A stretch of DNA of 63,236 nt, filler included, from Asterionella formosa (GCA_002256025.1; 12 parts of 11 records of this genome joined end to end with filler, not necessarily neighbours in it), one strand, 5' to 3'; counted from the whole stretch's first letter, positions 2,081-61,702 are shown. Notes: a model not told the origin generated them from the sequence alone. Numbers and translations are program-made.

Positions 2081-2713
2081 GATGGAGGGAAGTCTGGTAA
2101 GGGATCAGTAACCTGTGTGTGTTGAGAGGGAGAAACGCTTGCAACGGATGCCAGCGGCAGCTACATTAACAAGGAACTGAGATTCTAAAGTAGTATTTAA
2201 CTAGCTGTAGAGGGACCAGTACTCACGGGAATTAAGCACTTACAGGAATCTTGGTAGGATATACGGAGTAACCGGTATATGGTACCAACAGATATCATGC
2301 ATGTACTGTCAATCCGAGTCCTACGATGGTACAAAATTGAGCGCTGTTTCTACATGTTTTTGGGGAGAAAAGTCTCCCCAAAAAGCCGCTGCTGACGGGG
2401 CCGCAGAAAACATACGTGTTAAAAGCTAAAGGGGAATAAACGTCAGCGCAGAAAAAAGGGGAGAATTTCTCCCCAAAAATGTACAAGGATCTCCTACATT
2501 CTCCCCATTTTTCCACGCTTCTGCCTGCCAGCACTCACTGATGCTGCCTGGTGGTGGGTGGTTGTAACTAGTACTTTGTACCAGGTACATACCAGCTACT
2601 CTTGGTACCGGTACCCTGGTACCAGTACCAAGGAATGCGGAACCGAGACAGGAGTACCATGTTCCAGGTAGCAGCTACTCCTGGTACTGGTACCGTTGTA
2701 GGAGTACCAGGTA

Positions 2714-2808
2714 CCTGCAAGTTGCGGTCATTTTGCTGAAAGTAACATTTGAATCTTGGATAAAGAAAGCTAAACTTTTAGATTCAGCAAGTTACCGCAA
2801 CTTGCTGG
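2714..2808. mobile_element. 95-bp MITE with ~25-bp TIRs and TA target-site duplication (Tc1/mariner-type)
   Basis: TA|CCTGCAAGTTGCGGTCATTTTGCTG ... CAGCAAGTTACCGCAACTTGCTGG|TA. A second copy lies at 15395-15496. Confidence 0.8.
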
Positions 2809-3959
2809 TACCAAGTAACTTCTGAAATGACCGGTGATATGTATGTGGACATGTACAGCAGAGTAGACCACTGTACCTGGTAGCAGGTCGGTACCAGGTA
2901 CACAATTATAAACTATGAGACTTACCACCACTGTACCAGGTACCTGGTACCTTCGGAATACATTGAGCACAAGCAAATGTCGTCTAATTTGCGTAGTTTT
3001 AGGTTATTATTATGGGTACCAGCATATTTTCTATTGGCCATCAGTGTGTCTCCTATAATTCATCCATTTCTAAACATCAGATTTGCACGCGACCATGTCG
3101 GGTGCAAAACGACGAGATACGCGAGGCAGCCANNNNNNNNNNNNNNNNNNNNNNNNNNNNNNNNNNNNNNNNNNNNTTAATTAATTAANNNNNNNNNNNN
3201 NNNNNNNNNNNNNNNNNNNNNNNNNNNNNNNNTTTTTTTTTTGCTGTTCCAAGGCGCCAGGAGAAAACCTATCCGGCCGCTTTGCCCGCCTGCCCCATCG
3301 ATGTGGGGTGCTTGGGGGGCATCATGGGAGGATTCGAACTCCTCCCACCAGTTCATGTGTTCAGGAATGTTTTTGAGGCACCCCGTCATCCAATCATGTC
3401 CCAGTGTCCGGTGAGGCACCCCGCCCCTCTCACCTGGGCGAGGTAGTGTGAGACTTTCACTCACTAAAAACCTGTGTGCAGCCCCAGTCTTGACCAGTAC
3501 GCGGTCTGCCCTACCCGTCGGGGCGTTGGCCCGTGGATGTTGTCCACTGGTTGTTAATGGAGTACCGGTAGCACCTTCGACAAAAAGCTATGTAGCGATG
3601 TACCGGTACTCGTTTAGACTGGGTACCAGTACCAGGTACCTAGTACATAAAGTCGTCGCTATGTAGTCCAGCAGTAGTAAACTAGCACCTTCGACAAAGC
3701 TCAGTATGTATACTGCCTTGTATAGAGTGACCTCTAATAGTTTTGTCATGAAATGAAATCCCTTGTTGTACCTCCCCAGTTTTCTAGTAATATGCATGTT
3801 AACATGCAAACCATGAAACTACTAGTAGATAAAATAGTTAATAACAATTGAGGTACTAAACAAGCAAAGTAAATACTAAAGACACTGCAAATTTTAAAAT
3901 TTCAATGAATTTATCTAAACACACAGTAGTGAATGCCCACCAGTGCAACAATCTTCTAT

Positions 3960-4215
3960 AAGATGCATGAGTATGTATGTCACTGTTTGGTCTTGGCCAT
4001 ATGGCTCATAAATTCGGTCTATTGCTGTGTTTGCAGGAGTATCACCAGCAGAAACTAGCATTGCAACAGTCTCCCACAGAATTTTACACCAGCAGTAAAT
4101 AAATTTCAGTCTACTCCTTTCGACCCTTGTAAATAGCCTTGCTGGCTTTTGTCCTCCAATCCCAACTTCCCATTCCTGTCAAAGAACAACTAGCATCTTT
4201 GGTGTCTTAGCTACT
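3960..4215 (-). pseudogene. GCR1_C-like C-terminal domain remnant of a CryptonF-like element
   Basis: Manual minus-strand translation gives KTPKMLVVL*QEWEVGIGGQKPARLFTRVERSRLKFIYCWCKILWETVAMLVSAGDTPANTAIDRIYEPYG. This matches the LWxEW..GIGG.K.A..FT and AIDRIY..YG pattern; the conserved Trp has become a stop. Confidence 0.65.
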
Positions 4216-7717: not shown

Positions 7718-8067
7718 TAGTCAGAGTAGTAAGCGAGCAAGAACAGAACACCATATGTTCATGATTGTTGCTACTGCAGTGGGACAGAAAATCATCATAG
7801 TTTTAGGATTGTATGATCATAAAATTGAAAAAGGATAGTCGGAGTAGTAAGCAAGCAACAGAGCACCATATGTTCATGACTGCTGCTACTGCAGCGGGAC
7901 AAAAAAGCATCATAGTTTCAGGATCGTATCATCATAAAAATGAAAAAGGATATTTGGAGTAGTAAGCGAGCAACAGAGCACCATATGTTCATGACTGTTG
8001 CTACTGCAGCGGGACAGTAAATCATCATAGTTTCATGATTGTATAATCGCAAAATTGAAAACAAGAT
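7718..8067 (+). repeat. Three tandem ~115-bp units inside transposon copy 1
   Basis: Units begin TAGTC(A/G)GAGTAGTAAGCGAGCAACAG at ~7718, 7836 and 7951. Confidence 0.9.
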
Positions 8068-8264
8068 ATGATATTACTCAAACTCGGTTATGATTTTGTA
8101 TATGATAATGTAAATAGCACTGTTGGTCTTATGGTATCATATCTAGACAGCGTAAAAAATTATATGTAGTGGCTGATGATTCATTTCATTGTAGCTAGCA
8201 ACACCTGATTTTAAGATCATCAAACTTTAACGAAGACAACGACAACAGTTATCTAGTATTAGAA

Positions 8265-15173: not shown

Positions 15174-15394
15174 TACCTCTTTGACATTATAGGAACTTTG
15201 ATTAGCCCGGCCATCATAAAATTCGTTTTGGGATATCCTCCTAATGTCAAGCAAATGGCATTACTGTTATACTGGTATATCAGAGGCCGAAATTAGTTCC
15301 AGTACCGGTAATAAAAATGTCAAAAAGCCTCCCAGCAAAAGGTATCGTACGGGCATCAGAACAGTACTGGCACAATTGTACCTGGTACCAGGTA

Positions 15395-15496
15395 CCCGCA
15401 AGTTGCGCTCATTTCGCTTAAATAAACATTTTAATATGGGATAAAGATAGCTAAATCTTTAGATGCTTCAGCACAATTACTTCAACCATTTGCTGG
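15395..15496. mobile_element. MITE, second copy of the 2714-2808 family, in the SKP1 upstream region
   Basis: TA|CCCGCAAGTTGCGCTCATTTCGCT ... TTTGCTGG|TA, with an internal GGATAAAGA.AGCTAAA.CTTTAGAT segment shared with copy 1. Confidence 0.75.
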
Positions 15497-15642
15497 TACA
15501 CGGTATGTTTGATTTTCCAATGCTTCAAGCACGGGGTCTATTCACAGCACAACAAAAGGACTACTCAAGAATTTGTTGACTGCGATCGACGACCTCCATC
15601 CATTGTCCTTCGTAACCTTGCTCCCGAAGCAACAAACTCATC

Positions 15643-17147: not shown

Positions 17148-18770
17148 GGAAGGTCCAGTAAGCAGCAAATTGCGCACACTATATACTAAAAATTCCACGT
17201 AGCGGTTTCAACCTACTTCATTGGACGTCTGACCGGCTCACCAATTCCGAAATGATGAAAAATCTCAAAATATTTCCATGTATTTATACTACCTGTAACC
17301 GTTATAAAGTTTCAAATGGAAAAGCGCTGCCACCTTTCACAGCAGAATCGCTGACTACCAACTTCAACTTGCTGACTGCGGACGCACTTCTTGTTGCTAA
17401 CTGCTGACTTGTTTTGCTGAAAATTTGGAAATGTTCGCACAATATTTTCCTTGTTCTTGTTTCAGAGCACAGGGGAAAGATGACTGTATCTCAGCAGTCC
17501 TAATGTAAATGCAAATGTTCCAAAAGAATGGAAACATTCCAGGGAGGTCGAGGCCATTAAAATAGCATGAGAGTTCCGTTTGGTTGAATCATCATACATG
17601 GGGAACCAGTGATAGCAACAAGAGAACAATGTAAGCAATGGTGGGAAACCCAGCCACCCCTAATGGAGAGCAAAGATGCAAAGGTGCAAGCAAACTGACT
17701 CCATGATCCCAAAAATGCCCACACATTGAGCTGCTGAAGTCGCCAAGCTGCTTGATCAACATCACATGTGCTCATGGCAATAAGCAAGCGGAATTGGCTT
17801 GATTGCTCTTGCAGACAGACAATGCATCCTCCCACCGCCACAGCAACAAACTTAAACCTTCTTGTGCACTGTTGATTGATGTGTGTTCATCAGCTGAATG
17901 GAGCTGCCTTCTTACATTGAAAAATCGCTTGAGTGAAGGTGAACATGATGGAAGCACAGCCGATGACTGAAAACAGAGCATACATAGTCAATAATCACAT
18001 AATTACATGCACCATATCAAAGCATAATCATGCTTGTTGTTTCGCGTGCTTTGACTCAAATGACTCAATTATATTCACGTTGTTATGGGAATGGCAGATT
18101 CCTCAACCTATGAGACCTCGTTTTGCAATCTCTCCATCGGAAGTACTCCACAACAAGCCCTGCTATCGATGGTGAGAATCGCGCCAATTGGAACTGGTCA
18201 TACGACCAACAATTGAAATTCGCATATGGCTTTTTGAACAACAAGCATTATTCCGTGTTGACGTTTTTAGTTGATGAAAATGTCGAAAAATTCCTCGATA
18301 CACAGGGGTTGGGAAATCTAGAGTAACGTAGACGTACCTGGTACTCCGTACATGATAACAAACTGTGAAATAGACATTGATGCTACCTACTTCTTCATAT
18401 TGCTACCACTATGTACCGGTATTATTGTAAAAATGCTGACTTCAACTTGCTAACTACTGACTGCGGACTTTGTTTTGCTGACTGCTGACTTGATTCGATG
18501 AAAATTTGAAAAAATCGCTGACTGCTGACTTCTTTTCCTGACTGCTGACATGAAATCGCTGACTGCTGACTTCAAGTTCATTTATACAATAAAACGAGTA
18601 ATGGCGGCTTAACATCTATGTAAACAACTATTTAAAGAATAATGCAGTGGCCCAAAATTTAGGGGTTCGACAATTTTCGGGGTTGTGCTCTTGCCTTTTC
18701 TTGTATGTGAATCGATGAACAGAAAACGAGCAACCTGCACGCTATACGTGCGCTGATTACCGGACCTTCC
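17148..18770. mobile_element. Non-autonomous TIR element, copy A, rich in GCTGACT subrepeats
   Basis: Left GGAAGGTCCAGTAAGCAGC and right GCTGATTACCGGACCTTCC are inverted repeats. Both arms are duplicated in the adjacent copy B. Confidence 0.7.
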
Positions 18771-18771: not shown

Positions 18772-19820
18772 GAAATGTGCGGTAATCAGCAAATTTCGCG
18801 CACTATAAACTAAAAATTCCACGCAGCGGTTTCAACCTGCTTCATTGGAAGTCTGACCGGCTCACCAATTCCGAAATGATGAAAAATCTCAAAATATTTC
18901 AATTTATTTAGATTACCTGTAACTGTTAAAAAGTTTCAAACGGAAAAGCGCTGCCACCTTTCACAGCAGAATCGCTGACTACTAACTTCAACTTGCTGAC
19001 TGCGGACTTCTTGTTGCTAACTGCTGACTTGATTTGCCGAAAATTTGAAATATTCGCTGACTGCTGACTTCATTTGCTGATTACTGACATGAAATCGCTG
19101 ACTGCTAACTTCAACTTGCTGACGTCAAGCAACCTACTTTGTACATAGGAAGAGACCATCTACCGGTACCGGTGTACGAGTTGTGTTTACTTTTCATATT
19201 TAATAACGATGGAAGCATCTTANNNNNNNNNNNNNNNNNNNNNNNNNNNNNNNNNNNNNNNNNNNNNNNNNNNNNNNNNNNNNNNNNNNNNNNNNNNNNN
19301 NNNNNNNNNNNNNNNNNNNNNNNNNNNNNNNNNNNNNNNNNNNNNNNNNNNNNNNNNNNNNNNNAAAAAGCCATTCCTTCTACACTCATACTATCGGGAG
19401 TAACAAAGAGGTACCTGGTACTCCGTACATAATTAAATACTGTGAAATAGACATTGATGACTGAAAAAGTCATTGCTATCTACTTCTTCATGTTGCTACC
19501 ACTATGTACTATCGTATAAATGCTGACTTCAACTTGCTGACTACTGACTGCGGACTTCGTTTCGCTGGCTGCTGACTTGATTCAATGAAAATTTGAAAAA
19601 ATCGCTGACTGCTGACTTAAAGAGTTCATTTTGACAATAAAATGACTAATGGCTTAACGTCTATAAAAACAACTACCGGTATTTAAAGAATAACAGAGTG
19701 GCGCAAAATTAGGGGTTCGACAATTTTTGGGGGTGTGCTTTTCCTTTTCTCGTACTATGTTAATCGATGAACAGAAAATGAGCAACCTGCACGCTATGTA
19801 CACTGATTACCGGACCTTCC
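18772..19820. mobile_element. Non-autonomous TIR element, copy B, in direct tandem with copy A (contains an N-gap)
   Basis: 18780-19050 matches 17155-17430, and 19410-19820 matches 18335-18770. Ends in CTGATTACCGGACCTTCC. Confidence 0.7.
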
Positions 19821-21038: not shown

Positions 21039-21216
21039 TAGGAGACTGGTGTTGCTGTTTTGGAAAAGTCCAAACTCTTTCAGTAGTGGTGCATATACCG
21101 GTAAGTACGATTCTGCTATTTACTTCTAGTATAGACGTGTAACATTGCTTCCATTTGCTCCCCTCCTGTCGAACGAAATCTCATTGCTCCATCTTGACTG
21201 CTGGCTACGACGTGTT

Positions 21217-25323: not shown

Positions 25324-26644
25324 TGCTGATTATGGTTCAAGTGTAAGCAATGCTAAGCTAGAGTTAACCAACAGTGGTACCGGTACCGGTTATGGCAATG
25401 GTATATTCGTTGTATTACTTCCGGTACCCGTAATAATAAATGATAGAAATACTCACATTATTATCATAGCTGTGATGACTCTTTGGACGTGAGACATATC
25501 ATGCCACGTTAAAACTAAGAAGAATAAGATTGAGAGATGCTCTCAGGAATATATTTTAATTGCTGTCGCTGGGGAGTGTGAGTGTGACTTCACGAAGAAA
25601 ATCAAGGAGGCAGGAGGATACTCAAAAAAAGAGCATGTTGGGCTTCAAACTCGAAGCGACAAAAAGGGCAATTAATTTTGGNNNNNNNNNNNNNNNNNNN
25701 NNNNNNNNNNNNNNNNNNNNNNNNNNNNNNNNNNNNNNNNNNNNNNNNNNNNNNNNNNNNNNNNNNNNNNNNNNNNNNNNNNNNNNNNNNNNNNNNNNNN
25801 NNNNNNNNNNNNNNNNNGAATTCTAAGTTCTTCACACTGTTTTATGCTAAATTTATATCGTTTCGTCGCTGCAATCACGAGAAAGGAAATGAGGGGTTGA
25901 TCAGAAAACAATTTCCTTCATTTACTTGCCAATTCTGGTCACATTTTAGCGAAAAAATAGGTCCAGTGTTGTACCCTGGTACCGGTACTGTACAGACAAA
26001 TAAAACGAAAAGATAGGTCGAGTTGTGCCAAAAGGACGAATAAAACCAGTACTAATTGCATCCATTTATTTGGGCCCAACTGCAATTTTGAATAGCTTTA
26101 ACATACTATATAATTTAAGTGAAAAAAAAGTTCTTTGTTACTTCAATGGCGATTTGATTTGATTGATTTTCGAATAGAAATAGTACAGGTTAATTACTAC
26201 TCCGAGTAGCAAATATACCACCATACTTGTATACCATGATAGGTGAAAAATATACATGATGAAGCTAGTAAATTCAGGTCCCACTATATTGTCCCTATTT
26301 TTGTAGAGACAAACTCACCTGTTGACTCTTATAGTCATTCATGGTCTCCAATGAATCCAAATAGACAGGCCTGATGCCTCCAAAGGTTGTTTTTAGCTCC
26401 TTAATAGTCTTAAAAGGTACTACCACCATGGTCATTGGAGAGTCACTAGCTTTGTCGTCTTAATTGATTTTTAGGGGTATCAAATCAATGTTGACCGATG
26501 ATTACTATGTAATAGCCTTAAAAAGTACTACAGCATTTAACTGACCAGGGAAACTATGAAAACAAGTTTTAGCTTTAACAACTAGCCCAGAAAACTGGAT
26601 TGGTGAATTGCGATGATGGGATTGCTAGGGCTAAAGAACCAACA

Positions 26645-30179: not shown

Positions 30180-30489
30180 NNNNNNNNNNNNNNNNNNNNN
30201 NNNNNNNNNNNNNNNNNNNNNNNTTAATTAATTAANNNNNNNNNNNNNNNNNNNNNNNNNNNNNNNNNNNNNNNNNNNNTCATATTCCTCTCGAATCCAA
30301 TCATCCCAACATTCCATTGCAGCTAAATAGTCTTGTTCATTGTACCATGACCGAATTCCTTCCATCCAAAGATCCATTCTAGATATACCGGTATGTAAGT
30401 AGTAGTGAAAAGTAGTTATAGTAAGAACTCAAATCGCTATTGTTGTGGTTGTGAATGCTTCCACATAAGAATGTAGGAAAGTACCGGTA

Positions 30490-31794
30490 CCAGTAAAAAA
30501 CTGCTGTGACCCACTAAAAATAAATTGGAACTGCTGTGACCCACTGAACAGGAGAAAAACACGGTTTGACCCTCCCAAATGCAGATTTGTTAATTTTAAA
30601 ACTTCGACCCTAATCTTGAGCATGTACGCTTTAAGGCTATGTCATTAGATATTAGTTTATAGCAATTGGTTTCTCCTAAAATATTGGTTGAAAAGTGCGA
30701 TCGACGAAAATATTGCCAGAACACGGATTACCCCATGTTTTGAGGATTCATTGTTATATGATATACGCAGCTTAATACAAAAATATCGCCTTCGATTTAT
30801 TTGTTGTATGATTCCTGTCATATCCTTATCCCTGTCACTTGATAGTGCCTAAGTAACTTGAGCATCATAAACTGGCGCCCTATCACCCATACGCTTGAAA
30901 GGAAATGAGTACATACCAGTATACAATTTTCAGCTCATAATATGCATCCAATCTATGGCAAAAAAGAAATCGACTGTGCCTTCGGGCAAGGCGGCTCAGT
31001 CTATTAGCAGCGCAAACAAAGCGAGGATGATTGAACATTGCCTATTGAACATTTCCTATTGAACATTTCTACAAATATGGAAGTGTTGAAAGCGAAAAAT
31101 AATGGAAAACTACCATATGGCGCAATTTCTCGTTCTGTGCACGATGTACAAGAACTTGTCCCATGGGAGACTACACAGAAAGTGAAATACTTTCTAAGGA
31201 AAATAAGGTTATCTGGTGGCACCAGTAGCTACCAGAACGGACAAACAGCCTGAGGAGGATGAGCAAGAGGATTAACAAGAAAGCGAAATATCTATGCTGA
31301 CAATGGAAGGTGTAGAAAATTACAGCTATAGCAGAAAAAATCATCATCATTCTTCCATTACTACTATGATTATGTCTACAAGTTCTAGTTTGCCTCCTGC
31401 CAGGCAGCACTACTACTGCATCAACTGAAAGCAGCAGCAGCACCATTTCTGTCACTGCAACCCTGCCCTATGGTGGTCATCCAAAGAAAAAGTGAAAGAA
31501 TGTATTTCCAATTCGGCAGCAGAATATATGGTGAGAGAAGAGGAAAAAGAAAAAGGAGGAGAATCACGAGTGAAGAGAAATACACTTACCTGTATAATAC
31601 TGAGAGAAAAGGAGGCAATTGGTATTCTTCCTGCTGTCAATATTAATTTCGAAACAGTTAGAACATGTGCAAAAAGAAAAAACCATCAAGGAACAAACAC
31701 AGAATGCCTCTCACCTATGCTTGAAGTGGAACTTTACATTGTGGAGCTCATTGATCAGTTGAGTAAAATGCGTTCGCCCATCATATGCCGAGAG
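30490..31794 (+). mobile_element. Left end and degenerate N-terminal coding region of a pogo-like transposon
   Basis: TA|CCAGTAAAAAACTGCTGTGACCCACT with a 17-bp direct repeat at 30499-30515 and 30529-30545. Downstream fragments NNGKLPYGAI...PW and SPMLEVELYIVELIDQLSKMRSPI are typical of the region preceding the DDE domain. Confidence 0.65.
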
Positions 31795-32356
31795 NNNNNN
31801 NNNNNNNNNNNNNNNNNNNNNNNNNNNNNNNNNNNNNNTTAATTAATTAANNNNNNNNNNNNNNNNNNNNNNNNNNNNNNNNNNNNNNNNNNNNTTCATA
31901 ATTCAATAATTAAACAAAATTGTCATTCATCATTGTCATGTCTTTGTCGATCAGCAACATTGTCATGACGTTTACCCGGTACCAGTACCAGGTACCCTGG
32001 TACACAGCTTCATTGCCAGCAGTTATTGTATGGCTTACATGTTTTATCTATGAGGATTGTCAAACAACAAGTGGTAGGCTGCCACGCGATAGACGTAGTT
32101 AAATAATACTGAAACTGTCACTAAAATAAATGACTTAAGTTGCATTTGACCCGAAACCAAATATTAATAGTGGAGCATGATCGTCGAAACCGACTATTAT
32201 TATGGGAAGAAAACATCGAAAGGGACAATAAATAAGGGTAGTAATCTGTAACGGACTAATTATTTTGTGGCGTCAAAAAGTTCTTGTGGCAACAATAGGG
32301 TAATTGGGGAAAATGGATGATTAAAATTTCCTCATGCATGTATTAAAAATCAATAT

Positions 32357-32576
32357 ACTGAGAGTCATCCTTATGAGGCAAAACGATGACATTACAAAAA
32401 ATTTTATCTCAAGAAATATTGAGTTCACCATAGTTATATTTAGATCTAGTAGTACCCAACAGGAGGACGAGCCACAATAACCTTCGTACTTGCTTCAATA
32501 TTACCATGTAATCGGACTAAAATAATTTGAATTGTAACATGGGGTAAAATAAGGATGACTCTCAGTTTTTAGGTGG
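32357..32576. mobile_element. MITE (CTGAGAGTCATCC family), deleted copy with truncated left TIR
   Basis: ACTGAGAGTCATCCTTAT ... ATAAGGATGACTCTCAGTTTTTAGGTGG|TA. The interior matches 51159-51553. Confidence 0.75.
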
Positions 32577-33509
32577 TACCACTATTGAACAAATGAATCT
32601 GCAATTCGTTAGAATTTACCTTAGTCAGAGCGAGAGGAGTCAAACAAACATCCTACTAGTAACTCAATGGGTCATGGATGTTTTTTACTGGTACCCCTGG
32701 TAATAGGCAATTTAACATTCTATAATTCTGTTGGTCCTCGAAGACACTGATATATACTGGTCATTATTTGGCTATCATAATGTTGTGATCTTTTGTACAG
32801 ATTAAACCTCGAGTAGATAGGTACTGGTTGTGAGCAGCTGTGGAAGGTCCGGTAATTGAGATATCATGTTGTCACAACCTTGACCATATTTGCATGCATT
32901 CATGTTCCTGTTCCAACCAACAACGCTGAAGAACTCACATTTCCTATAACATCTGAACTTCATGCATGTATCCTTGCTTGATCAATGCAAGGCGTACTCA
33001 CTCATTGACACAAAAATCATTAACCCTCACTTCCAAGACACTCTAATCAATTGCATCACTTTCAAATCACTTCCAATTTTGATTTTGCCTTCTTCCTGTC
33101 CAATATATCAATGGATCATATTCTTCTTGTAATTTTTGTTGAAACTTGTAGGAATCTTTCTCCTATTCTTGTTGTACTTTTGTTGAAACTTGTAGACACT
33201 GTTCACCTTGGCAAGCTTCTTGTGGCAATTCTGACAAATTGTCTCTTAATATTCAGATGTGCGCTTTGGATTTATGCCGATGATCAAGGATATCCTTCTG
33301 TGCCTTGACTTTTTTGTCTCATTCTTGTGATTATCTCACCATTGTTGCAGGAACCTCGGTGACTCTAGAAATGATGACATTACCGTAGTGCTAATATTGC
33401 ATATATTAANNNNNNNNNNNNNNNNNNNNNNNNNNNNNNNNNNNNNNNNNNNNTTAATTAATTAANNNNNNNNNNNNNNNNNNNNNNNNNNNNNNNNNNN
33501 NNNNNNNNN

Positions 33510-35027: not shown

Positions 35028-38000
35028 NNNNNNNNNNNNNNNNNNNNNNNNNNNNNNNNNNNNNNNNNNNNTTAATTAATTAANNNNNNNNNNNNNNNNN
35101 NNNNNNNNNNNNNNNNNNNNNNNNNNNCCTGACACCAGTAGCAGTATTTCCGCCACAGTCATTCCTCTCCGCTGCCCACCAAACAAGCAACCCTGATCAT
35201 TCCATTCTGAGCAAGCGTGATCGCCACGCTGCTCCAGAACTATTGACTCTCTCTAGCTGAGTATTCATGTAGCTTCTGATACGAACTCGCAGTAGAAATG
35301 TAGCAAAGCGCGTTAGTACAAGAAATGCATTGCTTGGTGGCAGTATTGACATCATTGTCAACGACTATACAAATCAACAAATACGATCAACAACGGCACA
35401 ATACCACATCTTCAATGAGTAGTCATTGATAAATGCATTGGTTCTTATGTAGATATGTACAATCAAAACAAAACGACAGTGCGTAACAACAAACAACGAT
35501 GGAAGCGATCAAAACAAACCACGGAAGCAATGAAATCGGAAAGTCGATAAATACGATCTACAACCCACATTCAGTGTTTCACTGTTGTACTTACCGATCC
35601 GCTTCAACTAGCATAACAAGCAGCAGACGATGGGATCAAAGAAAGACGAACGTTGCCTATTGCAAGGCCGAATAGAGCAAAGGCAGGCAAGATAGAGTGA
35701 GAACTATATTTGTGAGGACGAAGTCGGGCATATGGTACGTAAAATCAATGAATATGTGAACGATATAATTCAACATTTCAGGTCTCGTAAAAATAATACC
35801 AAGTCTACAGAGATAATATTATAACATGTTCAAAGTAAGCGTTAAAGCATAGCATAAACCATGCATGGTTGTTTTTAGTGCCACGTACATATGTAGACTT
35901 GATGACTGCCGGTAACCGGTAGAATATCTGTAAAGCATCATTACATACATGACCGGAGCAAAAACTTGCCACCAATATCAGATGTATCGATATCATCGTT
36001 TGTCACACGAAAAATGGACGACGCGACTACATGAATACCTCGAGAAGTCAAGCAATCCAACAATCAACTGTATCCTTTAGGCAAAGAATCGCTACTGGCG
36101 TCATCGCGGAACTGATTTCGCTTCAAACTGGTCATGATGGACGACGACTGGCATGGTGAAAGGTGAATTGCCGGAGTCCACTTTTCAGGAGACGAACAAC
36201 AACGAGGTGAATTCTAGATATAAATTATTAAAAACTGAATAGTATATAAAATGGTTTCCTTAAGTAGACCCCTTGCCGATTTCGGCAATCCCAGGGCTGG
36301 AAAACCGAGGGGCAACTGGTGTCTGTTGTCTTGCAAAAATGCAAACATATGAAATATATAAAATATATTTTAATGATGGGCAATATCGGACCTTTGGCAA
36401 TTTTCGAGGTGAAGATAGGAAATATGCAAAATATATTTTATATGATGGGCAATAGTAGGCTGAAATTGACATTTATGCTAAATTTGTGGGCAGTAGGTAA
36501 GCGACTGACGCGACGATAGCTAGAGCGGGAATTGCCTCAACAATACCCTTCTCGGCGGCTACTTGCCTTCTCATATACATGTGTACTTGCAGGCAAGAGA
36601 CCACCTCGGGCATGTATTGCCTTCAGCAATTTAGTCGGGGAANNNNNNNNNNNNNNNNNNNNNNNNNNNNNNNNNNNNNNNNNNNNTTAATTAATTAANN
36701 NNNNNNNNNNNNNNNNNNNNNNNNNNNNNNNNNNNNNNNNNNTGGAGCTCGGATTGCAGTTAAAAATAATGGTTGTACTCCCACAATAAAGTGTCGAGTT
36801 ATGCAATGGCAGCATGCCGTTTCCTCATCGCTCCTCGTCTGTTTGAGTGCGAAGCAACAACGTACCGAGATCAATAATTGTACCGGTAGAGCTCCGACCC
36901 GATCGCATGAACAATCGATAGAGCAAGAGCGGGAATCGTTAGCAACGGCATCCAAAGCAGACGTTCTGCCGTTACAATATGTGCGGCGAGACCAATCAGC
37001 GCAAATGAAGTTATCAGAAGCAACAGCCCAAATGCTGCTGAGGGTGACGATCCGGTGGCGCTTGGGTTTCCGCTGCTGCTGCTGATTGACATTGTCGTAA
37101 CAGGCAGTTATTTAATTGGACTACTGGTATTACCGGTATGTATGTAAGAGGAAACGGCGGATGGCCGGATTGGTGATGTACCGGGATAGTACCGGTACCT
37201 GGTACCAGGTACTGGCAACATCAGGAACCGGTACCGGTGTGTCAAAAGTGTGTCAGACAAGCAAGTTGAGCTTGATTATCCTTCACCAGTAGAAAAGGTA
37301 GGTATGACTCAAAGTCGAAAGCGTCGACTTTTGCCATCAACCAGCCACACGATTATATTCTGGTATAATGAGCCCAACAATATAGACTATTTGGAAGACT
37401 GATAGTTTGAATCTAATGATCAATGGTTAGTATGAACCTATGATCCACAAGTGTCAGATAAAAATGGGTCTATCTATCAATGTATGTTCTGACAAAAGCA
37501 AACAGTATTTGGAAAATAGTTTGTTTGATTATTCAAACTGGACAAACATAATAAGTAGCTTAGCAACTCACAATAAGAATATAGAAATGAAAGAGAAATG
37601 AACATCTGTATATAGTCATCTTTGTCTACATCTGCAAAAAAAGCATCATGCATATAGGATCAAGGGTATTGTATGCTACGTGGCACAGGATTTTCCTATG
37701 TATGATAATTTTTGGATCAAAACTATGATCAAGGTATCCTATAACTATGATGATTTAATATTATTTTACTGACCTTGAAGTGTAATGATGATAAGAACAT
37801 TATCATCACACAATGTATATCAACTGATCTACAACATTTCTCATCAATATCATAAACCTTCTCATATTATTTTCAATTCTTGTGATTGCCCAATGTTAAG
37901 CAATGATTACTACAATGCATCATAAAATCAGCTAAACTCTATGCTATCATGTGAATTGTTTCATCGTAAATCTATCTTAAACATGATCATGACTCTAATC

Positions 38001-49873: not shown

Positions 49874-51007
49874 CGCGCTGTTAATGGCTGGTTTCCTCGT
49901 AGCTTTAATTGAGCAGATTAAATGTCCGATCCACCTGCGATCTATTTTTGCTCAAAGCGTATATCTGCTCGCTGAAGGCGAAATTGTGTAAGGAGACGAT
50001 TTGTATTGTGCTGACCGATTAGCTCAAAATAGTTTTTTTGAGTGATGGCAAGTGCCTAGCGAAAGACTTGGTTCTGGTATAGTACCACCTGAAACCGGTA
50101 CCAGGGAACCTGAGTCTTCCTCTCAGAAAGGGACAAGCTTGTCGTTGCGACAAAAGTACAAACATATTTATGTTTAAATAACTATAATACCGGTACATTC
50201 TTGCACACGAGGTCTTGTGTGGAACGCTTCTTTTCATAAGGTCATACGACGCTGCTTTTGATCAATCCAACCGAGGTCATTCAACAAGCAAAATTAACAA
50301 TCCGAAGTACGGTGGTGAAATCCATATGTAAATTATACGGCGGGAGAAAACATTTATGTACCTGTACTCACGCTTTCTCTTTTGTTGACCCAATATTGCA
50401 TGTACTGGTCAAAATTACCATAAATGTCTTTTCCCGAAATTTCATCTGATCTCAGTTTTGGTCCTCAATACTATTACCTACTCCAGATCAATTGTAATGT
50501 TCAATGATGAGCTGTAAAGCGTCATATGACCTCCTGTGCGATTATATATATTCATACACAAATTCGTATGTCCATCGTCTGCCATTTGTGCATTACGTTG
50601 TTTTAAATGTCCTGGTATTAAAAATGTGTGTTGGTTCATTATAATGAGTTCGGACCTACGGAGGACATGCCTATCAATATTAGAGGCAGAGTGCCTCAAA
50701 ACACACCTAAATATTCTTTCCCGAGGAAATTTGACTTGGATTACGGTATCAGTCTTGGTACTCTCAGAGGCCCGGTAATTTCTTTGTTGAATGACCTTTG
50801 TTTAAGGGATGCAAGCGAAAGCGTCTTATGACCTCATGTGATTCAGATTTATAAATGTCGAAGCAACGAGCATTTGGGTGCTTTCCGGACAAATAGGCTA
50901 AACAATCGTTGAATGCATCGTCTCGTCTTGCACAACCCTACCCGGTAAGGTAACAAATGGACCATAAAAAAAGAATTGTAAAACAGTAATTATGAAACCC
51001 TGAGGTG

Positions 51008-51092
51008 AACCTCAATATGAGAAGCTTCAATAGATGAGCCTAAAGAGAAGCCTTTAAGAGGAGCTTCAATGAGGAGCCTCAATGAGAAGCCC
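51008..51092 (+). repeat. Degenerate ~12-bp minisatellite (GAGCCTCAATGA-like)
   Basis: About seven imperfect consecutive units. Confidence 0.65.
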
Positions 51093-51158
51093 AAAGCCTT
51101 GAGTTCCAAACTACTACCGGTACACTCCAATTACTGGTACCTGTTACCAGGTTGAGTA

Positions 51159-51553
51159 CCACCAAAAAACTGAGAGTCATCCTTATTTCTTTTTTTACTC
51201 TGTGTAATCCTTAAACAAGGTAATCACGATGACATTAGAAAAATTTATATCTCAAGAAATATTGACTTCATCCAAGTTATAATTATATCTAGTGGGACCA
51301 GGTACCTGGTTGGAGTACCTGAGAGGGTGACGACTACCAGGTACTAAAGTTGCCCTTTCCACGGCCTTGCTTGTCTTGTCACATGCTGGAATAGGTAAGG
51401 AGGTTGTCCGTCCTGTATCGTCCTTTCAGGCGCACTCCCATAGAATTGAGCTACAATAACCTTCGAACTTGCTTCAACGTTACCATGCAATCGGACAAAA
51501 ATAGTTTGAGTCATAACACAGGGTAAAAACGGATGACTCTCAGTTTTAGGTGG
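51159..51553. mobile_element. 395-bp MITE with ~25-bp TIRs and TA target-site duplication
   Basis: TA|CCACCAAAAAACTGAGAGTCATCC ... GGATGACTCTCAGTTTTAGGTGG|TA. Confidence 0.85.
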
Positions 51554-53728
51554 TAGGCAGTGGCTGAGTACCGGGCCCTCCTATGGTGCTGAAAATCACG
51601 ATCCATACATTGGTGAGACATAACCCCTTCCAGGTAACTGTTCATTGGGTAGACCACGGGGATGGCATAATTACACTAGTTGTGGAGGGACAACTTTTGT
51701 CTTGGTTCCATGCACTGAAGGGCCTAACGAACCTGGAGGTAAGATTGGCTTCAGATCTGCAGACATGGACCAAACCAATCACTACTGTAGAGGCGTGGAG
51801 TACTAATCCACACCTGACTGGATTTTCCATGATACCTGCACGTTGCAGTAATTTTGCTGATGCACGTTTGCGGCTGATGGGCAGACATAGGAATTCAAAA
51901 AGAAATAAGCAGGAGCGTTAGCTAACGGTTAGATCAATGACGCTTGGCGCAAACCCATGAAATCGATGTTTGCCAAATCAATTGGAGCGATATGTTTTGG
52001 TCCAAAATAAGTCATTAGGAAGAATATTAGTGTGAAACGGTTTAATTTATGAGAATTTAGGATAAGAAATGCATGAACAAATATTGTTTAGGCGCATATC
52101 AATCATTTCAGACATGTGCAAAATTGTTTCAGACGATTCTCGCTCTTTGTCATTTCAAAAAGTATATGTGTCTACAGTTGTGGTACCTGGTATTGCTCTG
52201 ATGCATCATCATCAATGAGAAACCAAGGAACCCTCGTGGGCCCTTGGCCTTGTATATTATTATTTAGCATTTCTTTTCTATGTATTAATCACTATGTAAA
52301 GGGCAATCGTGGTGTCAGTCTGGGGAGCATCTTGTGCATCATGTTGTCTTGGCCTTGACCCTGACGAAAATAGCGGAAATGTCTGTGAAAATCGAGGGCG
52401 ATGCCTTCCTATTTGATGGAGAAGTTTTTCATTTACTTTGGAAATGCACAATTCAACACAATGACGTTTGATAAAGATTCAACACATCAAAGTAGCTGCA
52501 CAAAGGCTACTGCTGCAAGTAGAACAATAAAATGATTAATTGAAGTTACTGTGTTGTATGAACGACTGTGTGCATCTCTTGATTTGTTGATTTTTCGAGA
52601 CGAGGACATGATGCATTTTGTTGATTATAATATAATATTGCTTGTTTCGCTATCTCTCATCATCTTATGTACACGGTATGCATGCATGATTAGGCACCAG
52701 CGGCGTGACCTCTGTGGACAAACTACAAACTATTTTTCCTCATACATATGTTACGTACAGCCTGCCCCAACCAGGAGCTCGTGTCAGACGAATTTTTGTC
52801 AGACAGATAGTAACAGTTTTCAGACATCAGTCGCTTCTTGTCAGACACACACAACTAAGATAGCATCAGACGCACACAAAAATCATAGCACCATAATTCA
52901 TTTAGTCAATTGATTTACCGGTAAACTCTACGTATTTCGATTGAACGGAAAAAATTGGAGCCTATTAGACGCGATAATAGAAAAATCAAGTGGTTGACCA
53001 GCCTGCCGGGGGTTCTACCATAATTAGTAGTAGGTTTCGAGCAGGCCAGCAAATTAATATGAGTAAGGACCCAATATGCTGGTGGTTTGATCCCTGGACA
53101 CGACATCCCCAATGCCCTCCTGGATCAATCCAACCCAAGTGCCCCCTAACATGGCCCCCACCCCCTGGTTCGCCTTTGGCCCATCATAGTAGGGCAAATC
53201 TAGACTTTAGACTCTGAGTAAGCAAGGCGGAATCAGGCAAGGTGGCGGAATTCCTAGTAAATCCGCCATTACCAGCATCACCCAGCTTCTCCTACTACTA
53301 CTAGCTTATCTTCTTGTAAATCCCACACTCAAGTTGAGTAAGAACGGGAGTCCTATAGGCAAAGCGGCAAAAGCCGCAAATAAGAAGCCTACATAAAAGT
53401 ACAAATGTATGCGCACCCCCCACCCCCGTACGCCGGTATGTACGTGGTACGGAAAAAGCTGTTCTACTTACAGACCAATACAACGGTATACTCTGGTGGA
53501 AGAAAAATACATCTACATTACCGGTATGTTAGTGCTAAATACATTATATGGAGGCACCAGGGTCCCACCTGGAACTCCCACCTGGTCACCTAGCAATACT
53601 GTTATGAAGCCTCACAAAAATATTGACCCTTCCCGCACCAAATACCGGTAAATCAGAAGTCTCACAATACAAAAATATATTGATGAAACCTTGTGAAATC
53701 TTTTTGATCTCCGATTTACAACGTTTGC

Positions 53729-56123: not shown

Positions 56124-57848
56124 GATTTCGCTAGTGTTAATGTGTATAATGCGAAATGTGGAGTTTGCTTTTGTCGGCTCAAGAAAATTATGAGTAAATG
56201 TTGAGATGAGAAATTGGGCATCGGAAATTTCTAGGGGATACTTTTCATTGGGTCCCACCATAATAGGCCAAAATGCGTTGGATGTTTCTATCTTGTGGGA
56301 CAACGATATTGTCTCATGTGAGGTGCAAATAATGAGTCCCCTCATGGTTCTAATCCGACTCCACAATATAGGACGCAACGTATGAATCCCATCTGTGTTA
56401 GCTACACTCCGTCTCTTGGTATATTCATGTGTCCTGATATACGATCCATCAATGGGTATAACTAATCAAAGTATAGTGAATGGTTTTGGTTGAGAGACCA
56501 TCTTATTTTCCAGAAGGAAGGAGAAAAAGGTTTGGTTGTTTGAGAGCAATACTTTGCTCTTTTTCAATTTCCGTGTTTTTCCAACAAACGAGAAAGGAAC
56601 GTGTATAGGGTGAGGAAGGGTATCTGCGACGGACAGTCTCACAAAAATTCTAAAGGCACCGGTCACAAGGTGGTTTTGGTGTTCGTTGCCAATCTTTCGA
56701 CTGTACCATTCCCTTTCTTTTGGATCTCTCTCTCTCTCTTAAATTTCTGTAACCACAAACAACATGAGGGATGAGTTTCGATTGGTCGAATATACTATAA
56801 AGTGCGCCTTGATTGCTGCAAACACGAGAATCCGAGACATTTTGTTTTAAGAAATGCCAATTGTGCCAAGAGCATCATCATCAAGGACTCAGAAGGAATC
56901 CGACTGATTGTATATGCAATTTCGTCCTTTTCTCATGTTGTGGTTGCAGCGAGTATCGNNNNNNNNNNNNNNNNNNNNNNNNNNNNNNNNNNNNNNNNNN
57001 NNNNNNNNNNNNNNNNNNNNNNNNNNNNNNNNNNNNNNNNNNNNNNNNNNNNNNNNNNNNNNNNNNNNNNNNNNNNNNNNNNNNNNNNNNNNNNNNNNNN
57101 NNNNNNNNNNNNNNNNNNNNNNNNNNNNNNNNNNNNNNNNNNNNNNNNNNNNNNNNNNNNNNNNNNNNNNNNNNNNNNNNNNNNNNNNNNNNNNNNNNNN
57201 NNNNNNNNNNNNNNNNNNNNNNNNNNNNNNNNNNNNNNNNNNNNNNNNNNNNNNNNNNNNNNNNNNNNNNNNNNNNNNNNNNNNNNNNNNNNNNNNNNNN
57301 NNNNNNNNNNNNNNNNNNNNNNNNNNNNNNNNNNNNNNNNNNNNNNNNNNNNNNNNNNNNNNNNNNNNNNNNNNNNNNNNNNNNNNNNNNNNNNNNNNNN
57401 NNNNNNNNNNNNNNNNNNNNNNNNNNNNNNNNNNNNNNNNNNNNNNNNNNNNNNNNNNNNNNNNNNNNNNNNNNNNNNNNNNNNNNTGCTGTATGGAGTG
57501 GTATGAAGTATGAAATATGCCTGTGCCTTGTATGTATGTACCGACACGGTACCTGGAACCAGGAGTTTACGTACTGGCTGATTAATGGCCAGAATCCAGT
57601 CGAGGTTGTGACGTTCATATTCTACAAGCATCATCACTGATTTCTTCGGCAAAGAAAATACGCACAGTAATGTCAAGAGGATACGACTGGTACAGGGATG
57701 CAGCACCTAGTACCGGTAGCCAAAATATCAGTATTGCTTATTGGAACAATAGTACATGTGGGTTAACCATTGATCCACCACTGCTTCTACCAATCATCCC
57801 ATCCCACCCAGTCACATACACACAAACACATCAAGAGGGACAATTGTA

Positions 57849-59977
57849 ATGACAAGATCGCGGACAGCACTCGCATCATGGCTGCTAATGACAATGCTCC
57901 GTTCCGTCTCGGCCTTTGCGCCACCAAAACTGCACCGGCGTCAGCGTTCGGCCCCTTCATTTCTTCACATGTCGTCGGAAGCCCCAGGAGCCACCAAGAA
58001 ACTCTCCAACAACAATAAGAATCTCGTACCCATGGTGGAATACAATGCTGAACGCATTCGCAATTTCAGCATCATTGCTCACATTGATCATGGAAAGTCG
58101 ACGCTTGCCGATCGGTTGTTGGAAATGACCCAAACGGTCGCCTCCAGAGACATGGAAGCTCAATTGTTGGATAACATGGATTTAGAACGGGAACGAGGGA
58201 TTACTATTAAACTGCAAGCGGCACGAGTCTTGTACACGTCGAAAGTGGATGGACTTGTTTACACCTTGAACCTTATTGACACACCCGGTCATGTGGACTT
58301 TAGCTATGAAGTCAGTCGGAGTTTGGCCGCCTGTGAAGGGGCGTTGCTAGTTGTGGATGCTAGCCAAGGAATTGAAGCGCAGGTAATACCATGTTCTGCA
58401 ATGATCGTTTCGCGCTTTCTTCTCTATACTCATGTCGTGGGCTAAACATACCTCCCAAAACACATTTTTACTTACAGACACTAGCCAACGTCTACCTTGC
58501 CCTTGACAACAACCTGGAAGTCATTCCTGTCTTGAATAAAATTGATTTGCCTGCTGCCGAACCTGACAAGGTCAAGGAAGAAATCGAACAAACCATTGGC
58601 TTGGATTGTACTGACATTGTTCTGGCCAGCGCCAAATCGGGAATTGGCATTGAAGATATTATGGAACGAATTGTGAAATGCGTTCCGCCCCCACCAGCAT
58701 CCACTGGGGGACCCTTTCGGGCATTAATTTTTGATTCGCTCTATGATTCCTATCGTGGGGTGATTGTATTTTTTAGAGTTGTGGACGGAAAAGTCAGAAA
58801 AGGGGACAAAGTGCGCTTCTTGGCCAGCTGTGCCGAGCATGAAGTTACGGAAGTGGGAATTATGCAACCGAATCAAGTGTCTGTCGACTCGTTACAAGCA
58901 GGAGAAGTTGGGTTCCTTTGTGGGGGCATTAAGGACGTGTTGGATGCCAGAGTTGGTGACACGATTGTTTTGACACGAGAATTCAAGGAGGGCATTGCCA
59001 AAGGGATGGATCCACCCATACCTGCCCTTCCAGGATATGCTGACTCAGTTCCAATGGTGTATTGTGGATTGTTCCCCGTGGATGCAGATCAATATGAAGG
59101 TCTGCGGGATTCATTGGGGAAATTGCGTTTGAATGATGCAGCCTTGTCCTACGAACCAGAAGTGTCGGCAGCCATGGGCTTTGGCTTTAGATGTGGTTTT
59201 TTGGGGTTGTTACATATGGAGATTGTTCAAGAACGATTGCAGCGAGAATATGATATTGACTTGATTGTCACAGCACCCTCTGTCAAATATCGTGTCCGTT
59301 CCAAGGGAGAAAATCTGGAAACAGTGGTTGATGCTCCTAGCAAAATGCCGGATCTAATGCGCGATCAAGAGTGCCTGGAACCCTTTGTCAAGATGGAAAT
59401 TTTGACGCCGTCAGATTACAATGGACAGATCATTGAACTTTGCCAAGAACGTAGAGGAATTTTGAAAGACATCAAATACTTGACACTAACGAGGTCAACG
59501 ATTGTGTATGAAATTCCATTGGGGGAAGTGATTACTGACTTTTTTGATCAACTCAAGTCGAGAACACAAGGATATGCATCCATGGAATACTCCATAATTG
59601 AATATCGTCCGAGTGATTTGGTGAGGTTGGATGTCAAGATCAATTACGAATTAGCAACACCTCTGGCATGCATCGTTCATCGCGACAATGCCCAAATTAT
59701 TGGTCGTAAGCTCGTGGCGTCACTCAAAAAGCTGATCCCTCGTCAAATGTTTAATGTTCCCATTCAAGCCTGTATTGGAGTGAAAGTCATTGCTTCGGAA
59801 TCAATTTCTGCAATGAAGAAGGATGTTTTGGCCAAATGTTATGGAGGCGATATCTCTAGAAAGAAGAAGCTTTTGCAAAAGCAAGCAAAAGGAAAGAAGA
59901 GAATGAAAGCAATAGGTAAGGTAAATGTTCCACAAGAGGCATTTATGGCTGTTCTCAAGCTTGATGCCAATGATTAG
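57849..59977 (+). CDS. lepA: Plastid-targeted translation factor LepA/EF4 (GUF1 family), ~677 aa. Exons 57849-58382 and 58478-59977.
   Basis: [53 protein letters not shown] and [15 protein letters not shown] 95-nt GT-AG intron restores IEAQ/TLAN. Bipartite presequence ...RSVSA-FAP. Confidence 0.97.
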
Positions 59978-60058
59978 GACAAGGCTAAAGTAAAGTAGTG
60001 AAAGTGCTGCTGTATTTTTGTTACAACTTAAGGCATCTACATTACCATGGTTTTGTCC

Positions 60059-61081
60059 TCAATACACTTGAGTAAGCGGCTTCTTTGCTGCCGGTTTCTT
60101 TGTTCCTGGCTTCTTTGCAACTGTTTTCTTCTGTCTCAAGAATGAGAACAATCCCTTTTTTGTATTTTGCTGGGCTTTAGGGGCAGGCTTGGTTGAGATC
60201 TTCGCCAAGTTTGTCACGGCCACAATGCAAGTAGGTATAGGTGGAACATAACGCCGCATTGGAAACGACAACACATAGATAATCAAAAACAGAACTGGTG
60301 ATAAGACAAAGATTGATATCAACGAGATGATCAGGGTCTCTTTTGGTCTATTTTTCCATGATATGGAGGTGTAAATAGCATCGTCATCACCTGCCGCGTC
60401 GTCACCTGCGGCGTCGTCACCTGCCGCGTCGTCACCTGCCGAGTCATCAACATTGGGATAGCCGACATCGAACAAAATGTCGTGAATCAACGTCCAAAGA
60501 ACGTAGAGAAATGAAATGAACATGGGATATACAATGTGCCTGAAACGGACTGGAACTCGATTGACCACTAGGCCTTCCAACAAAACCAAAATCATAACTC
60601 CTCCATGTTTCATGAAATTATAGTACGTCACTCCGGAAACGTAGTCGTATTCCACACTCCAGTAGAGGAAGGTGACTGAAGCTTGCAGTGAACTGGCAAC
60701 TGCAAAGAGCCCCCAAGGTAGTTTGATGAACCAGTTGAGCTTATTGGAGGAATCTTGCACAACCAGTTGAGCAATCAACGAAGTGACCAAATACAATTCG
60801 GCAAAGCTGAGAGCCCAGTGAGTCAAGTTCGCCATGAAGAATCCTCGCGCATATATATCAGGGTAGGAGAGAAGGTTGCCGATGAGCACTTCTAGCGCCC
60901 ATAAAACAATGGCTAGTTTGACAAGGAACACGGACCATTTGGGAGTGGGAGCAAATGTGCGCTGCAAGTCCAGCGTCTTGCCGTTTGAATCTTCCAGCGA
61001 GAAGGAGTCGAGCTGTATCTCAGTGCAGCATACTCCACGTTTGGTGCTACGGGCATTGTAACTGTGATAGACGGAGTCCAT
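60059..61081 (-). CDS. Rolling-stone (rost)-like multi-pass membrane protein with a Lys-rich C-terminus
   Basis: About six to seven hydrophobic helices. Motifs LTHW, VTFLYW, HG...VLLE.LVVNRVPVRFRHIVYP and IY..ISW..RP match the rost family. First in-frame ATG at 61081. Confidence 0.78.
   Translation of the reverse strand: MDSVYHSYNARSTKRGVCCTEIQLDSFSLEDSNGKTLDLQRTFAPTPKWSVFLVKLAIVLWALEVLIGNLLSYPDIYARGFFMANLTHWALSFAELYLVTSLIAQLVVQDSSNKLNWFIKLPWGLFAVASSLQASVTFLYWSVEYDYVSGVTYYNFMKHGGVMILVLLEGLVVNRVPVRFRHIVYPMFISFLYVLWTLIHDILFDVGYPNVDDSAGDDAAGDDAAGDDAAGDDDAIYTSISWKNRPKETLIISLISIFVLSPVLFLIIYVLSFPMRRYVPPIPTCIVAVTNLAKISTKPAPKAQQNTKKGLFSFLRQKKTVAKKPGTKKPAAKKPLTQVY
60387..60440 (-). repeat. Coding 15-bp tandem repeat (AGDDA, ~3.6 units)
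   Basis: TCACCTGC(C/G)GCGTCG units at 60387, 60402, 60417 and a partial unit at 60432. Confidence 0.9.
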
Positions 61082-61702
61082 CGTCGCAAAATAGGACGAC
61101 AAAACGTGAGGGGTAGTCTAGTGCATCAGTATCAGTATACCTTTATTTTCATTTGAGCAACGCAATACCGGTATTTACCGGTCAAATGTGAAAGTCATTT
61201 AAATACTGGAATGAGCGTTCGAATTGAAGCTACATACAAACCAGTACTACCGGTATGTTCAGCCGCCAGAAATTTGGAGACGCTTCCGCAATATACATCT
61301 ACCGGTATGGAGAGTGAATGTTTGTTCTGTATGATTGGAATTTCGTGCAGAATGCACGCCTGCCATCCTATTACCCGGTGCGCTCTTTTTGTATATATTG
61401 CACTACACTATGTACAATAATGCTTCGTTTTGATTTGCACGACCTGTCATGTTTACCGGCTCCTATGTCGGGCCAATGAGCGAGTACAAAGTACTGGTAC
61501 CGCTATCTTACTGGTGTGAAGGAGCAACAAACAAGTACTAGGACACGGACTCCAAGCAGAATTTTCGCAACGGTCATCCATGCTATCATTGTCGCAGTCG
61601 GCTGTACATACCACATGTGCTGNNNNNNNNNNNNNNNNNNNNNNNNNNNNNNNNNNNNNNNNNNNNTTAATTAATTAANNNNNNNNNNNNNNNNNNNNNN
61701 NN

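Follow-up and report, generated by a model that had tools for sequence, protein, structure and literature searches.

Why is the non-coding DNA of this stretch from the freshwater diatom Asterionella formosa (GCA_002256025.1) peppered with one eight-base palindrome, TACCGGTA, and with its nine-base relative TACC(A/T)GGTA (hereafter TACCWGGTA)? The window, i.e., the whole stretch of DNA that was analyzed, spans 63,236 bases; it is a string of contigs, many of ~1,515 bp, and not a single locus, joined by linkers of 44 N + TTAATTAATTAA + 44 N and interrupted by other N runs. The motif density reported here comes from these concatenated short contigs and may not represent the whole genome. With moderate confidence, the two words are taken here to be debris of TA-inserting, mariner-like MITEs (miniature inverted-repeat transposable elements) of the IS630-Tc1-mariner (ITm) kind with CC(A/T)...(A/T)GG ends. 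Two kinds of debris would be mixed: (i) excision footprints and (ii) inverted-repeat tips.

The excess of both words is large. TACCGGTA has 25 matches and TACCWGGTA 16, each against 0.26 expected, and none of 100 dinucleotide-preserving shuffles of the window reaches either count. Under an order-2 Markov model, TACCGGTA is the top-enriched palindromic 8-mer in the window (25 versus 0.44, 57-fold), and the nine-mers TACCAGGTA (9 versus 0.24) and TACCTGGTA (7 versus 0.24) are enriched 37- and 29-fold. No TACCGGTA falls within the five supported genes (7.3 kb), one lies in a high-copy repeat (13.9 kb), and 24 lie in the other 38.9 kb. The initial annotation, which had described non-coding DNA peppered with these motifs, is borne out on this point, and the examples it named (2579-2713, 2933-2950, 3563-3645, 15379-15394, 31973-32002, 37190-37211, and 51115-51344) are in place. 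Because the flanks are unlike at most TACCGGTA sites, these represent independent loci and not copies of a single repeat; 17 of the 25 are isolated, with no related or tip-like word within 30 bp.

The spacing of the half-sites is equally restricted. Words of the form TACC-Nk-GGTA number 25 at k=0, 18 at k=1 (A 9, T 7, C 2, G 0, so that the spacer is A or T in 16 of 18), and 3 at k=2 (all CT), falling to background at k>=3; this series fits junction heterogeneity with the third inverted-repeat base in the middle. Among the 16 words TAC-NN-GTA, the CG form leads with 25, followed by TA (10), TG (8), CA (7), and CT (4), the others occurring 0-2 times. The TG, CA, and TA forms are the CpG-deamination products of the CG form, and the window has a CpG observed/expected ratio of 0.69, with TG and CA at 1.27-1.29. 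CpG decay of TACCGGTA could thus give rise to the also-enriched TACTGGTA, TACCAGTA, and TACTAGTA. Elements with CT...AG ends would be another source of TACTAGTA, for which the inverted-repeat scan of the window returned no convincing candidate.

The enrichment is specific to a lineage, since 123 kb of other diatom-like LepA loci show none of it (TACCGGTA 2 versus 0.69 expected; TACCWGGTA 0 versus 0.55). The closest relative (L001, 90% identity) carries one TACCGGTA in 1,964 bp, 6 bases past the LepA stop codon, on a contig that does not contain the LepA upstream region.

How the word comes and goes can be seen where two paralogous copies, 18300-18800 and 19377-19860 (~76% identical by blastn, up to 84% depending on the alignment), each hold one TACCGGTA that is missing from the other (strand not assigned):

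18414..18421: TACCGGTA, overlaps a 6-bp indel when compared with its paralogous counterpart near 19510
19674..19681: TACCGGTA, a clean 6-bp insertion at TA relative to the "empty" paralogous site near 18629

At 19674, the two copies read "aaacaac TA tttaaag" and "aaacaac TACCGG TA tttaaag", with no residual repeat sequence, while at 18414 one extra substitution is required for a pure CCGGTA insertion. Both informative sites, i.e., those present in one copy only of a paralogous alignment, are therefore 6-bp indels at TA, and none arose by substitution; a gain of CCGGTA at TA is what the initial annotation had predicted, there as a check on repeat copies and alleles. Each has the form of a Tc1/mariner footprint, a duplicated TA around a few extra bases facing a single TA in the empty site. 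The empty flanks contain no CCGG template, and thus slippage or local duplication cannot make the site. All intra-window alignments together yield 20 indels of 5-9 bp, 2 of them at TACCGGTA and 18 unrelated to the motif.

The region around these copies (17140-19860) consists of nested repeats with periods of ~540 and 1080 bp, whose units carry the informative indels. It is also rich in the word TGCTGACT, which occurs 17 times in the window against 1.1 expected.

A footprint implies an element with matching termini, and TA-flanked elements with CC...GG ends reside in the window:

2705..2817, + strand: MITE copy 1, TA, CCAGGTACCTGCAAGTTGCGG ... CCGCAACTTGCTGGTACCAAG, TA
15386..15505, + strand: MITE copy 2, ~81% identical to copy 1, with an extra TACCTGG unit before it, ~138 bp upstream of the Skp1 ATG at 15643
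32469..32580, + strand: second copy of the right end of a second family, ending in ...TTTTTAGGTGG, TA
50083..51555, + strand: candidate 1469-bp TA-flanked element with ends CCACCTGAAACC... and ...TTTTAGGTGG
51335..52192, + strand: two CCAGGTAC tips in inverted orientation, separated by 854 bp, the left tip running into CTAAAGTTGCCC, like the MITE inverted repeat

The MITE is ~110 bp long, is present in two full copies, and is flanked by TA, past which the flanks are unrelated. Its ends read CCAGGTACCYGCAAGTTGCGG... and ...TTGCTGG, and the inner inverted-repeat pair of copy 1, CCTGCAAGTTGCGG and CCAGCAAGTTGCGG, has 1 mismatch in 14. It is thus short and non-coding, with terminal inverted repeats, TA flanks, several copies, and similarity that ends at the repeats, as befits a mariner-like MITE. 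The second family is recognized by its right end, TTTT(T)AGGTGG followed by TA, found at 51555 and 32578, with similarity to 51448-51555 ending directly after the TA; the interior of the 1469-bp candidate holds TACCGGTA at 50188 and 51115 as well as GGTACC-rich patches. The bases left in the words are the terminal 2-3 bases of these resident elements (CCAGG.../CCTGC... and ...CTGG for the MITE, CCACCT... and ...AGGTGG for the second family). These two families, the MITE and that ending in AGGTGG, correspond to the two TA-flanked CC(A/T)...(A/T)GG families of the initial annotation, while the pogo-like left end that it mentioned without coordinates was not located.

The inverted-repeat scan produced many chance pairs in AT-rich words (TAAA, TATG, TAAT), and only TACC candidates with a second copy were kept. 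Its other outputs include a 76-bp candidate (10994-11073 / 42543-42622) and a pair at 61254-61610. An imperfect short tandem repeat (gagaagc.t.aa... units) occupies 51000-51100, just upstream of the TACCGGTA at 51115 inside the 1469-bp candidate.

MADE1 is a mariner-derived MITE from Hsmar1, and Stowaway is likewise a name for mariner-derived MITEs. The diatom MITE resembles such MITEs in being short (~110 bp), TA-flanked, and bounded by terminal inverted repeats. Its outer end CCAGGTACCTGCAAGTTGCGGT has AGGT, TGCAA, and TTGCGGT in common with the Hsmar1 end, where they follow one another likewise; a comparison made by eye and without a statistic counts 5 mismatches plus 5 gap positions across 27 bases (PMC5714172; here and below, the cited papers are drawn on in part). 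It differs from Hsmar1 in its tip (CCAGGTACC and not TTAGGTTGG) and in having 5 fewer bases between GCAA and TTGCGG, and from mariner-derived MITEs in that the window holds only two full copies and a few tips.

Several words are linked into chains. Nine chains, defined as at least two CC..G(G) units with shared TA, were parsed (strand not assigned):

2606..2627: TA CCGG TA CCCTGG TA CCAG TA, within a GGTACC-rich patch (2575-2713)
2934..2949: perfect 16-bp palindrome TACCAGGTACCTGGTA, which can be parsed into two units or into a pair of inverted-repeat tips joined at GTAC
3624..3645: TA CCAG TA CCAGG TA CCTAG TA
15379..15394: TA CCTGG TA CCAGG TA, abutting MITE copy 2
19161..19176: TA CCGG TA CCGGTG TA
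25972..25987: TA CCCTGG TA CCGG TA
30482..30495: TA CCGG TA CCAG TA
31973..32002: TA CCCGG TA CCAG TA CCAGG TA CCCTGG TA, with 4 of 4 units different
37190..37211: TA CCGG TA CCTGG TA CCAGG TA, then CTGGCAAC, which is inverted-repeat-like; exact in an independent run (X5)

Adjacent units in the nine chains are almost always unlike, which argues against slippage and is no proof of serial insertion and excision. Stacked footprints at a self-reinforcing TA hotspot, as the initial annotation envisaged them, are accordingly not demonstrated, and some chains are readable as collapsed repeat tips. The nine-mers point the same way: their context is almost always G-TACCWGGTA-C, with G/C at 29 of 32 pooled flank positions and on both sides in 13 of 16; 14 of 16 read CCWGGTAC, the first 8 bases of the MITE inverted repeat, and 3 to 4 of 16 extend into repeat-like sequence. 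At least some nine-mers, perhaps many, and some chains are thus read as repeat tips or collapsed elements and not excision footprints; for TACCAGGTACCTGGTA, a single element reduced to its two tips is an equally good reading. The isolated eight-mers are read as the footprints proper. The earlier proposal of a footprint origin for all of these words is partly supported: it gains support for CCGGTA, with its TA-anchored 6-bp indels, and not for at least some of the nine-mers.

The proposed sequence of events is as follows. An element would insert at TA and duplicate it. On excision, to judge from the structure of the indels, the transposase would cleave the non-transferred strand within the element, 2-3 bases from either end, after which end-joining would seal the donor as TA + CC + GG + TA, a net gain of 6 (CCGGTA), sometimes with the third A/T base kept; CCGG suggests a 2-base stagger or trimming. 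The MITE end, TA followed by CCAGGTAC..., would leave G-TACCWGGTA-C and palindromes such as TACCAGGTACCTGGTA from intact, truncated, or internally collapsed copies. Debris would then build up in unique, gene-proximal non-coding DNA, because the elements likely insert near gene 5′ ends, like the MITE copy upstream of Skp1. These steps accord with what is reported of related systems: ITm transposases leave the 5′ end recessed by 2-3 bases, 3 in mariner (PMC5714172), and canonical Sleeping Beauty footprints are "cag" or "ctg" between TA duplicates (PMC5224488). Both agree with the Tc1/mariner excision premises of the initial annotation.

The likeness to ITm footprints (Sleeping Beauty TA-C(A/T)G-TA) lies in the duplicated TA around a few terminus-matching bases and in the net 5-7 bp insertion at TA. 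The diatom scars differ in that they keep CC+GG with an optional A/T, and CCA overhangs cannot pair in the manner of CAG/CTG; in addition, the diatom word is the top-enriched 8-mer, forms chains, is concentrated upstream of genes, and is known here from sequence alone.

Several observations weigh against the transposon-debris reading. Only two informative indels are available, from one repeat region, one of them with an extra substitution, and their direction (gain versus precise loss) is not polarized. Retention of both 3-base ends should yield the 10-mer TACCATGGTA, which occurs 0 times in the window. Since CCA overhangs are not self-complementary, CCWGG is a less natural product than the C(A/T)G of Sleeping Beauty. 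A search of 100 of the 101 stop-to-stop open reading frames (ORFs) of at least 85 aa in the window revealed no DDE/D transposase domain. The resemblance to Hsmar1 is a lead and not a statistical test. In rice, a perfect footprint followed only 8 of 94 excisions (PMC4423477), and by this measure one uniform scar per ~2.4 kb would be unusual both in its cleanness and in its frequency. The last two points against it, the placement of the word upstream of genes and its identity with a published promoter motif, are best considered together with the explanation that they also fit.

The protein-coding features of the window are

15643-16137, + strand: Skp1 gene
21217-23718, + strand: 833-aa ORF
24151-25323, − strand: palmitoyl-protein thioesterase gene, a single ORF
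33454-34929: Ty1/copia fragment, the only transposable-element protein found in the window
57849-59977, + strand: LepA/GUF1 gene
60059-61081, − strand: 340-aa ORF

and the sites upstream of them (strand not assigned) are

15303..15310: TACCGGTA, 333 bp upstream of the Skp1 gene
21096..21103: TACCGGTA, 114 bp upstream of the first ATG of the 833-aa ORF
25378..25385: TACCGGTA (as TACCGGTACCGGTT), 55 bp upstream of the palmitoyl-protein thioesterase gene
57711..57718: TACCGGTA, 131 bp upstream of the LepA/GUF1 gene
61166..61307: three TACCGGTA (61166, 61248, 61300) and degenerate versions of the word, 85-219 bp upstream of the 340-aa ORF

TACCGGTA thus precedes all five supported genes with a 5′ flank on the contig, at 55-333 bp from the first ATG. 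Of the 25 sites, 7 lie no more than 350 bp upstream of the five gene starts against 0.83 expected (P ~1e-5), and on the gene-bearing contigs alone 7 of 10 against 2.1 (P ~1e-3); these genes were picked by Pfam hit or length, after the pattern had been seen in four of them.

Could the words then be bound by a dimeric transcription factor and serve this diatom lineage as a promoter element, with half-sites TACC and GGTA abutted or 1 base apart, a site that transposon ends merely resemble or carry? This explanation, possibly with a co-opted site, is unlikely, yet it is a live rival and survives better than those that follow. The palindromy suits a dimer, and bZIP factors read both 7- and 8-base palindromes. 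Full and degenerate copies cluster in the promoters, where the counts above show the over-representation that a promoter motif should have. The word is identical to the "high-confidence" motif M94, listed beside M93 (TACATGTA), from promoters of the oomycete Phytophthora infestans (PMC3597505). It further matches motif-9, reported upstream of 1,284 Phytophthora genes (PMC3520976) with the sequence GTACCGGTA as quoted in PMC10031896, and streme-5 (ATACCGGTAT) in Plasmopara (PMC10031896). Both the clustering upstream of genes and the identity with a published oomycete promoter motif had been missed in the initial annotation.

What speaks against a transcription-factor site is that both informative sites were gained or lost as 6-bp TA-anchored indels and not by point change, and that the nine-mers coincide with the MITE inverted-repeat tip. 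The distance to the ATG varies from 55 to 333 bp, and the 123 kb of other diatom-like LepA loci show no conservation of the enrichment among related species or orthologous promoters. In the oomycete literature, the consulted portion of a P. infestans study of transcription-factor specificity gave 0 matches for CCGGTA, TACCGG, ACCGGT, and GGTACC and named no factor (PMC11267843), and in the consulted portions of PMC3597505 neither M93 nor M94 is among the six motifs tested functionally. Insertion of the elements near gene 5′ ends would, moreover, lead one to expect proximity to promoters just as much.

The oomycete motifs M94, M93, motif-9, and streme-5 are alike in that an identical palindromic word is enriched upstream of genes in another stramenopile lineage. 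They are unlike in having been defined by over-representation plus expression correlation and read as transcription-factor sites, whereas the diatom word is tied to TA-anchored indels and transposon ends. The M93 word TACATGTA is not enriched in the window (0 versus 2.15 expected). Judged by their letters, M93 and M94 would be exactly the 2+2 footprints predicted for CA...TG- and CC...GG-ended TA elements. It is conceivable, if rather doubtful, that scars from transposon excision generally supply stramenopiles with palindromic "promoter motifs": the diatom TACCGGTA, the oomycete M94, motif-9, and streme-5, and M93 would all be 2+2-base footprints of CC...GG- and CA...TG-ended elements in open promoter DNA, the G-TA-C context of a scar would be a preferred next target, hence the chains, and some scars would have been co-opted as binding sites. 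A literature search returned nothing on the TACCGGTA word or on Tc1/mariner MITEs in diatoms.

A third explanation keeps the transposon ends and dispenses with transposase: ordinary deletion or inter-repeat recombination would collapse MITEs to their tips, and the 8-mer would be further decay or the tip of another family. Collapse would account for TACCAGGTACCTGGTA (2934-2949), which has the sequence of left tip CCAGGTAC and right tip GTACCTGG merged at GTAC, for the CCWGGTAC shared by 14 of 16 nine-mers, and for the several words within messy GGTACC-rich patches. As an account of the whole it is quite improbable, since random deletion would not repeatedly keep exactly 2+2 bases, 17 of 25 TACCGGTA sites stand without a tip-like word nearby, and the change from TA to TA-CCGG-TA at 19674 is clean.

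An origin by replication slippage, as a microsatellite with a unit of six bases, (GGTACC)n, or seven, (CCWGGTA)n, is very improbable. It would suit the abundance of GGTACC (42 versus 10.2 expected), the unit periods of 6-7 bases, and net length differences from the window of +6 (X6, X8) and +12 (X1) letters, in contigs of other runs, somewhere in 36743-37412, a stretch that holds the chain at 37190, two TACCGGTA sites, and also a (GCT)4 run. The chains almost never show tandem identical units, most TACCGGTA sites are isolated, and the insertion at 19674 had no pre-existing unit to slip on. A further net length difference, −7 (X1), falls somewhere in 52629-54548, likewise a single-copy stretch with motif sites.

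An assembly or library artefact of short unplaced contigs, to which a window of many ~1.5 kb contigs joined by linkers might give rise, is effectively refuted: the stretch 57487-61622 is present in 20 runs of 16 studies, mostly labelled freshwater metagenomes; sites also occur in longer gene-bearing contigs; and run X5, which belongs to a different study, has contigs that agree with 36942-37339, 49751-50301, and 52617-53097 without gaps and with 0, 0, and 1 differing letters, reproducing the four motif sites at 37131, 37190-37211, 50188, and 52916, so that the words are not made by the assembly.

The transposon-debris reading thus places the diatom system with Tc1/mariner footprints and mariner-like MITEs, from which it stands out by its density, chains, gene-proximal place, and identity with oomycete promoter motifs. 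The cyanobacterial HIP1 (PMC4390886) is similar as a dispersed, strongly over-represented 8-base palindrome with a methylatable core. It is prokaryotic and largely within genes, while the diatom word lies in non-coding DNA, is bounded by TA, is generated by indels, and has a link to transposon termini.

If this reading holds genome-wide, excision, not insertion, would write the genome's most over-represented short word, next to genes. Through the word, earlier cut-and-paste activity and end-joining repair would then be simple to read from sequence in diatoms, in which DNA transposons are, to our knowledge, little studied. TA-anchored indels should in that case be checked before abundant TA-bounded upstream palindromes are called transcription-factor sites, a caution that bears on the published oomycete motifs near effector genes. 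Were the regulatory reading true instead, the word would be a candidate core promoter element common to diatoms and oomycetes.

The genes of the window are eukaryotic and nearly intron-free. The LepA ORF is 97% and 88% identical to unnamed proteins and 76-78% identical to those of Cylindrotheca, Seminavis, Nitzschia, and other diatoms. At four of the 25 TACCGGTA sites (30386, 37131, 53519, and 61248), TGT comes directly after the word (TACCGGTATGT), as does AGT at 21096; the results are GTATGT- and GTAAGT-like splice-donor words, at few sites and perhaps by chance.

The high-copy repeat is ~8 kb long, with two copies ~84-91% identical at 6264-12233 and 37625-45702 and a further match at 62926-63097. 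Four runs cover it roughly 500 times as deeply as neighboring single-copy DNA, and the interpretation of 6.3-12.2 kb and 37.6-45.7 kb as diverged alleles was rejected on this ground. The pair was uninformative for CCGGTA indels, none being found between two copies that hold one motif copy, inside a 228-bp indel. Its ORFs (e.g., 10628-11326 and 41973-42683) have no Pfam match, the second copy has an extra ~1.9 kb at 43524-45452, and a 115-bp tandem repeat array lies inside the repeat at 7627-8147 and 39217-39737.

Between 6933-11980 and 38173-43524, the modal indel is 4 bp (sizes 1:7, 2:1, 3:8, 4:17, 5:4, 6:3). Nine of the 17 four-base indels have a 2-bp direct repeat around two extra bases, XY-NN-XY with the second XY belonging to the flank (P ~7e-5), and NN is GC in 5. 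They look like another class of footprint-like changes, one without a tie to TA. TAGCTA, at 30 versus 9.4 expected, is enriched more than any other TA-NN-TA hexamer.

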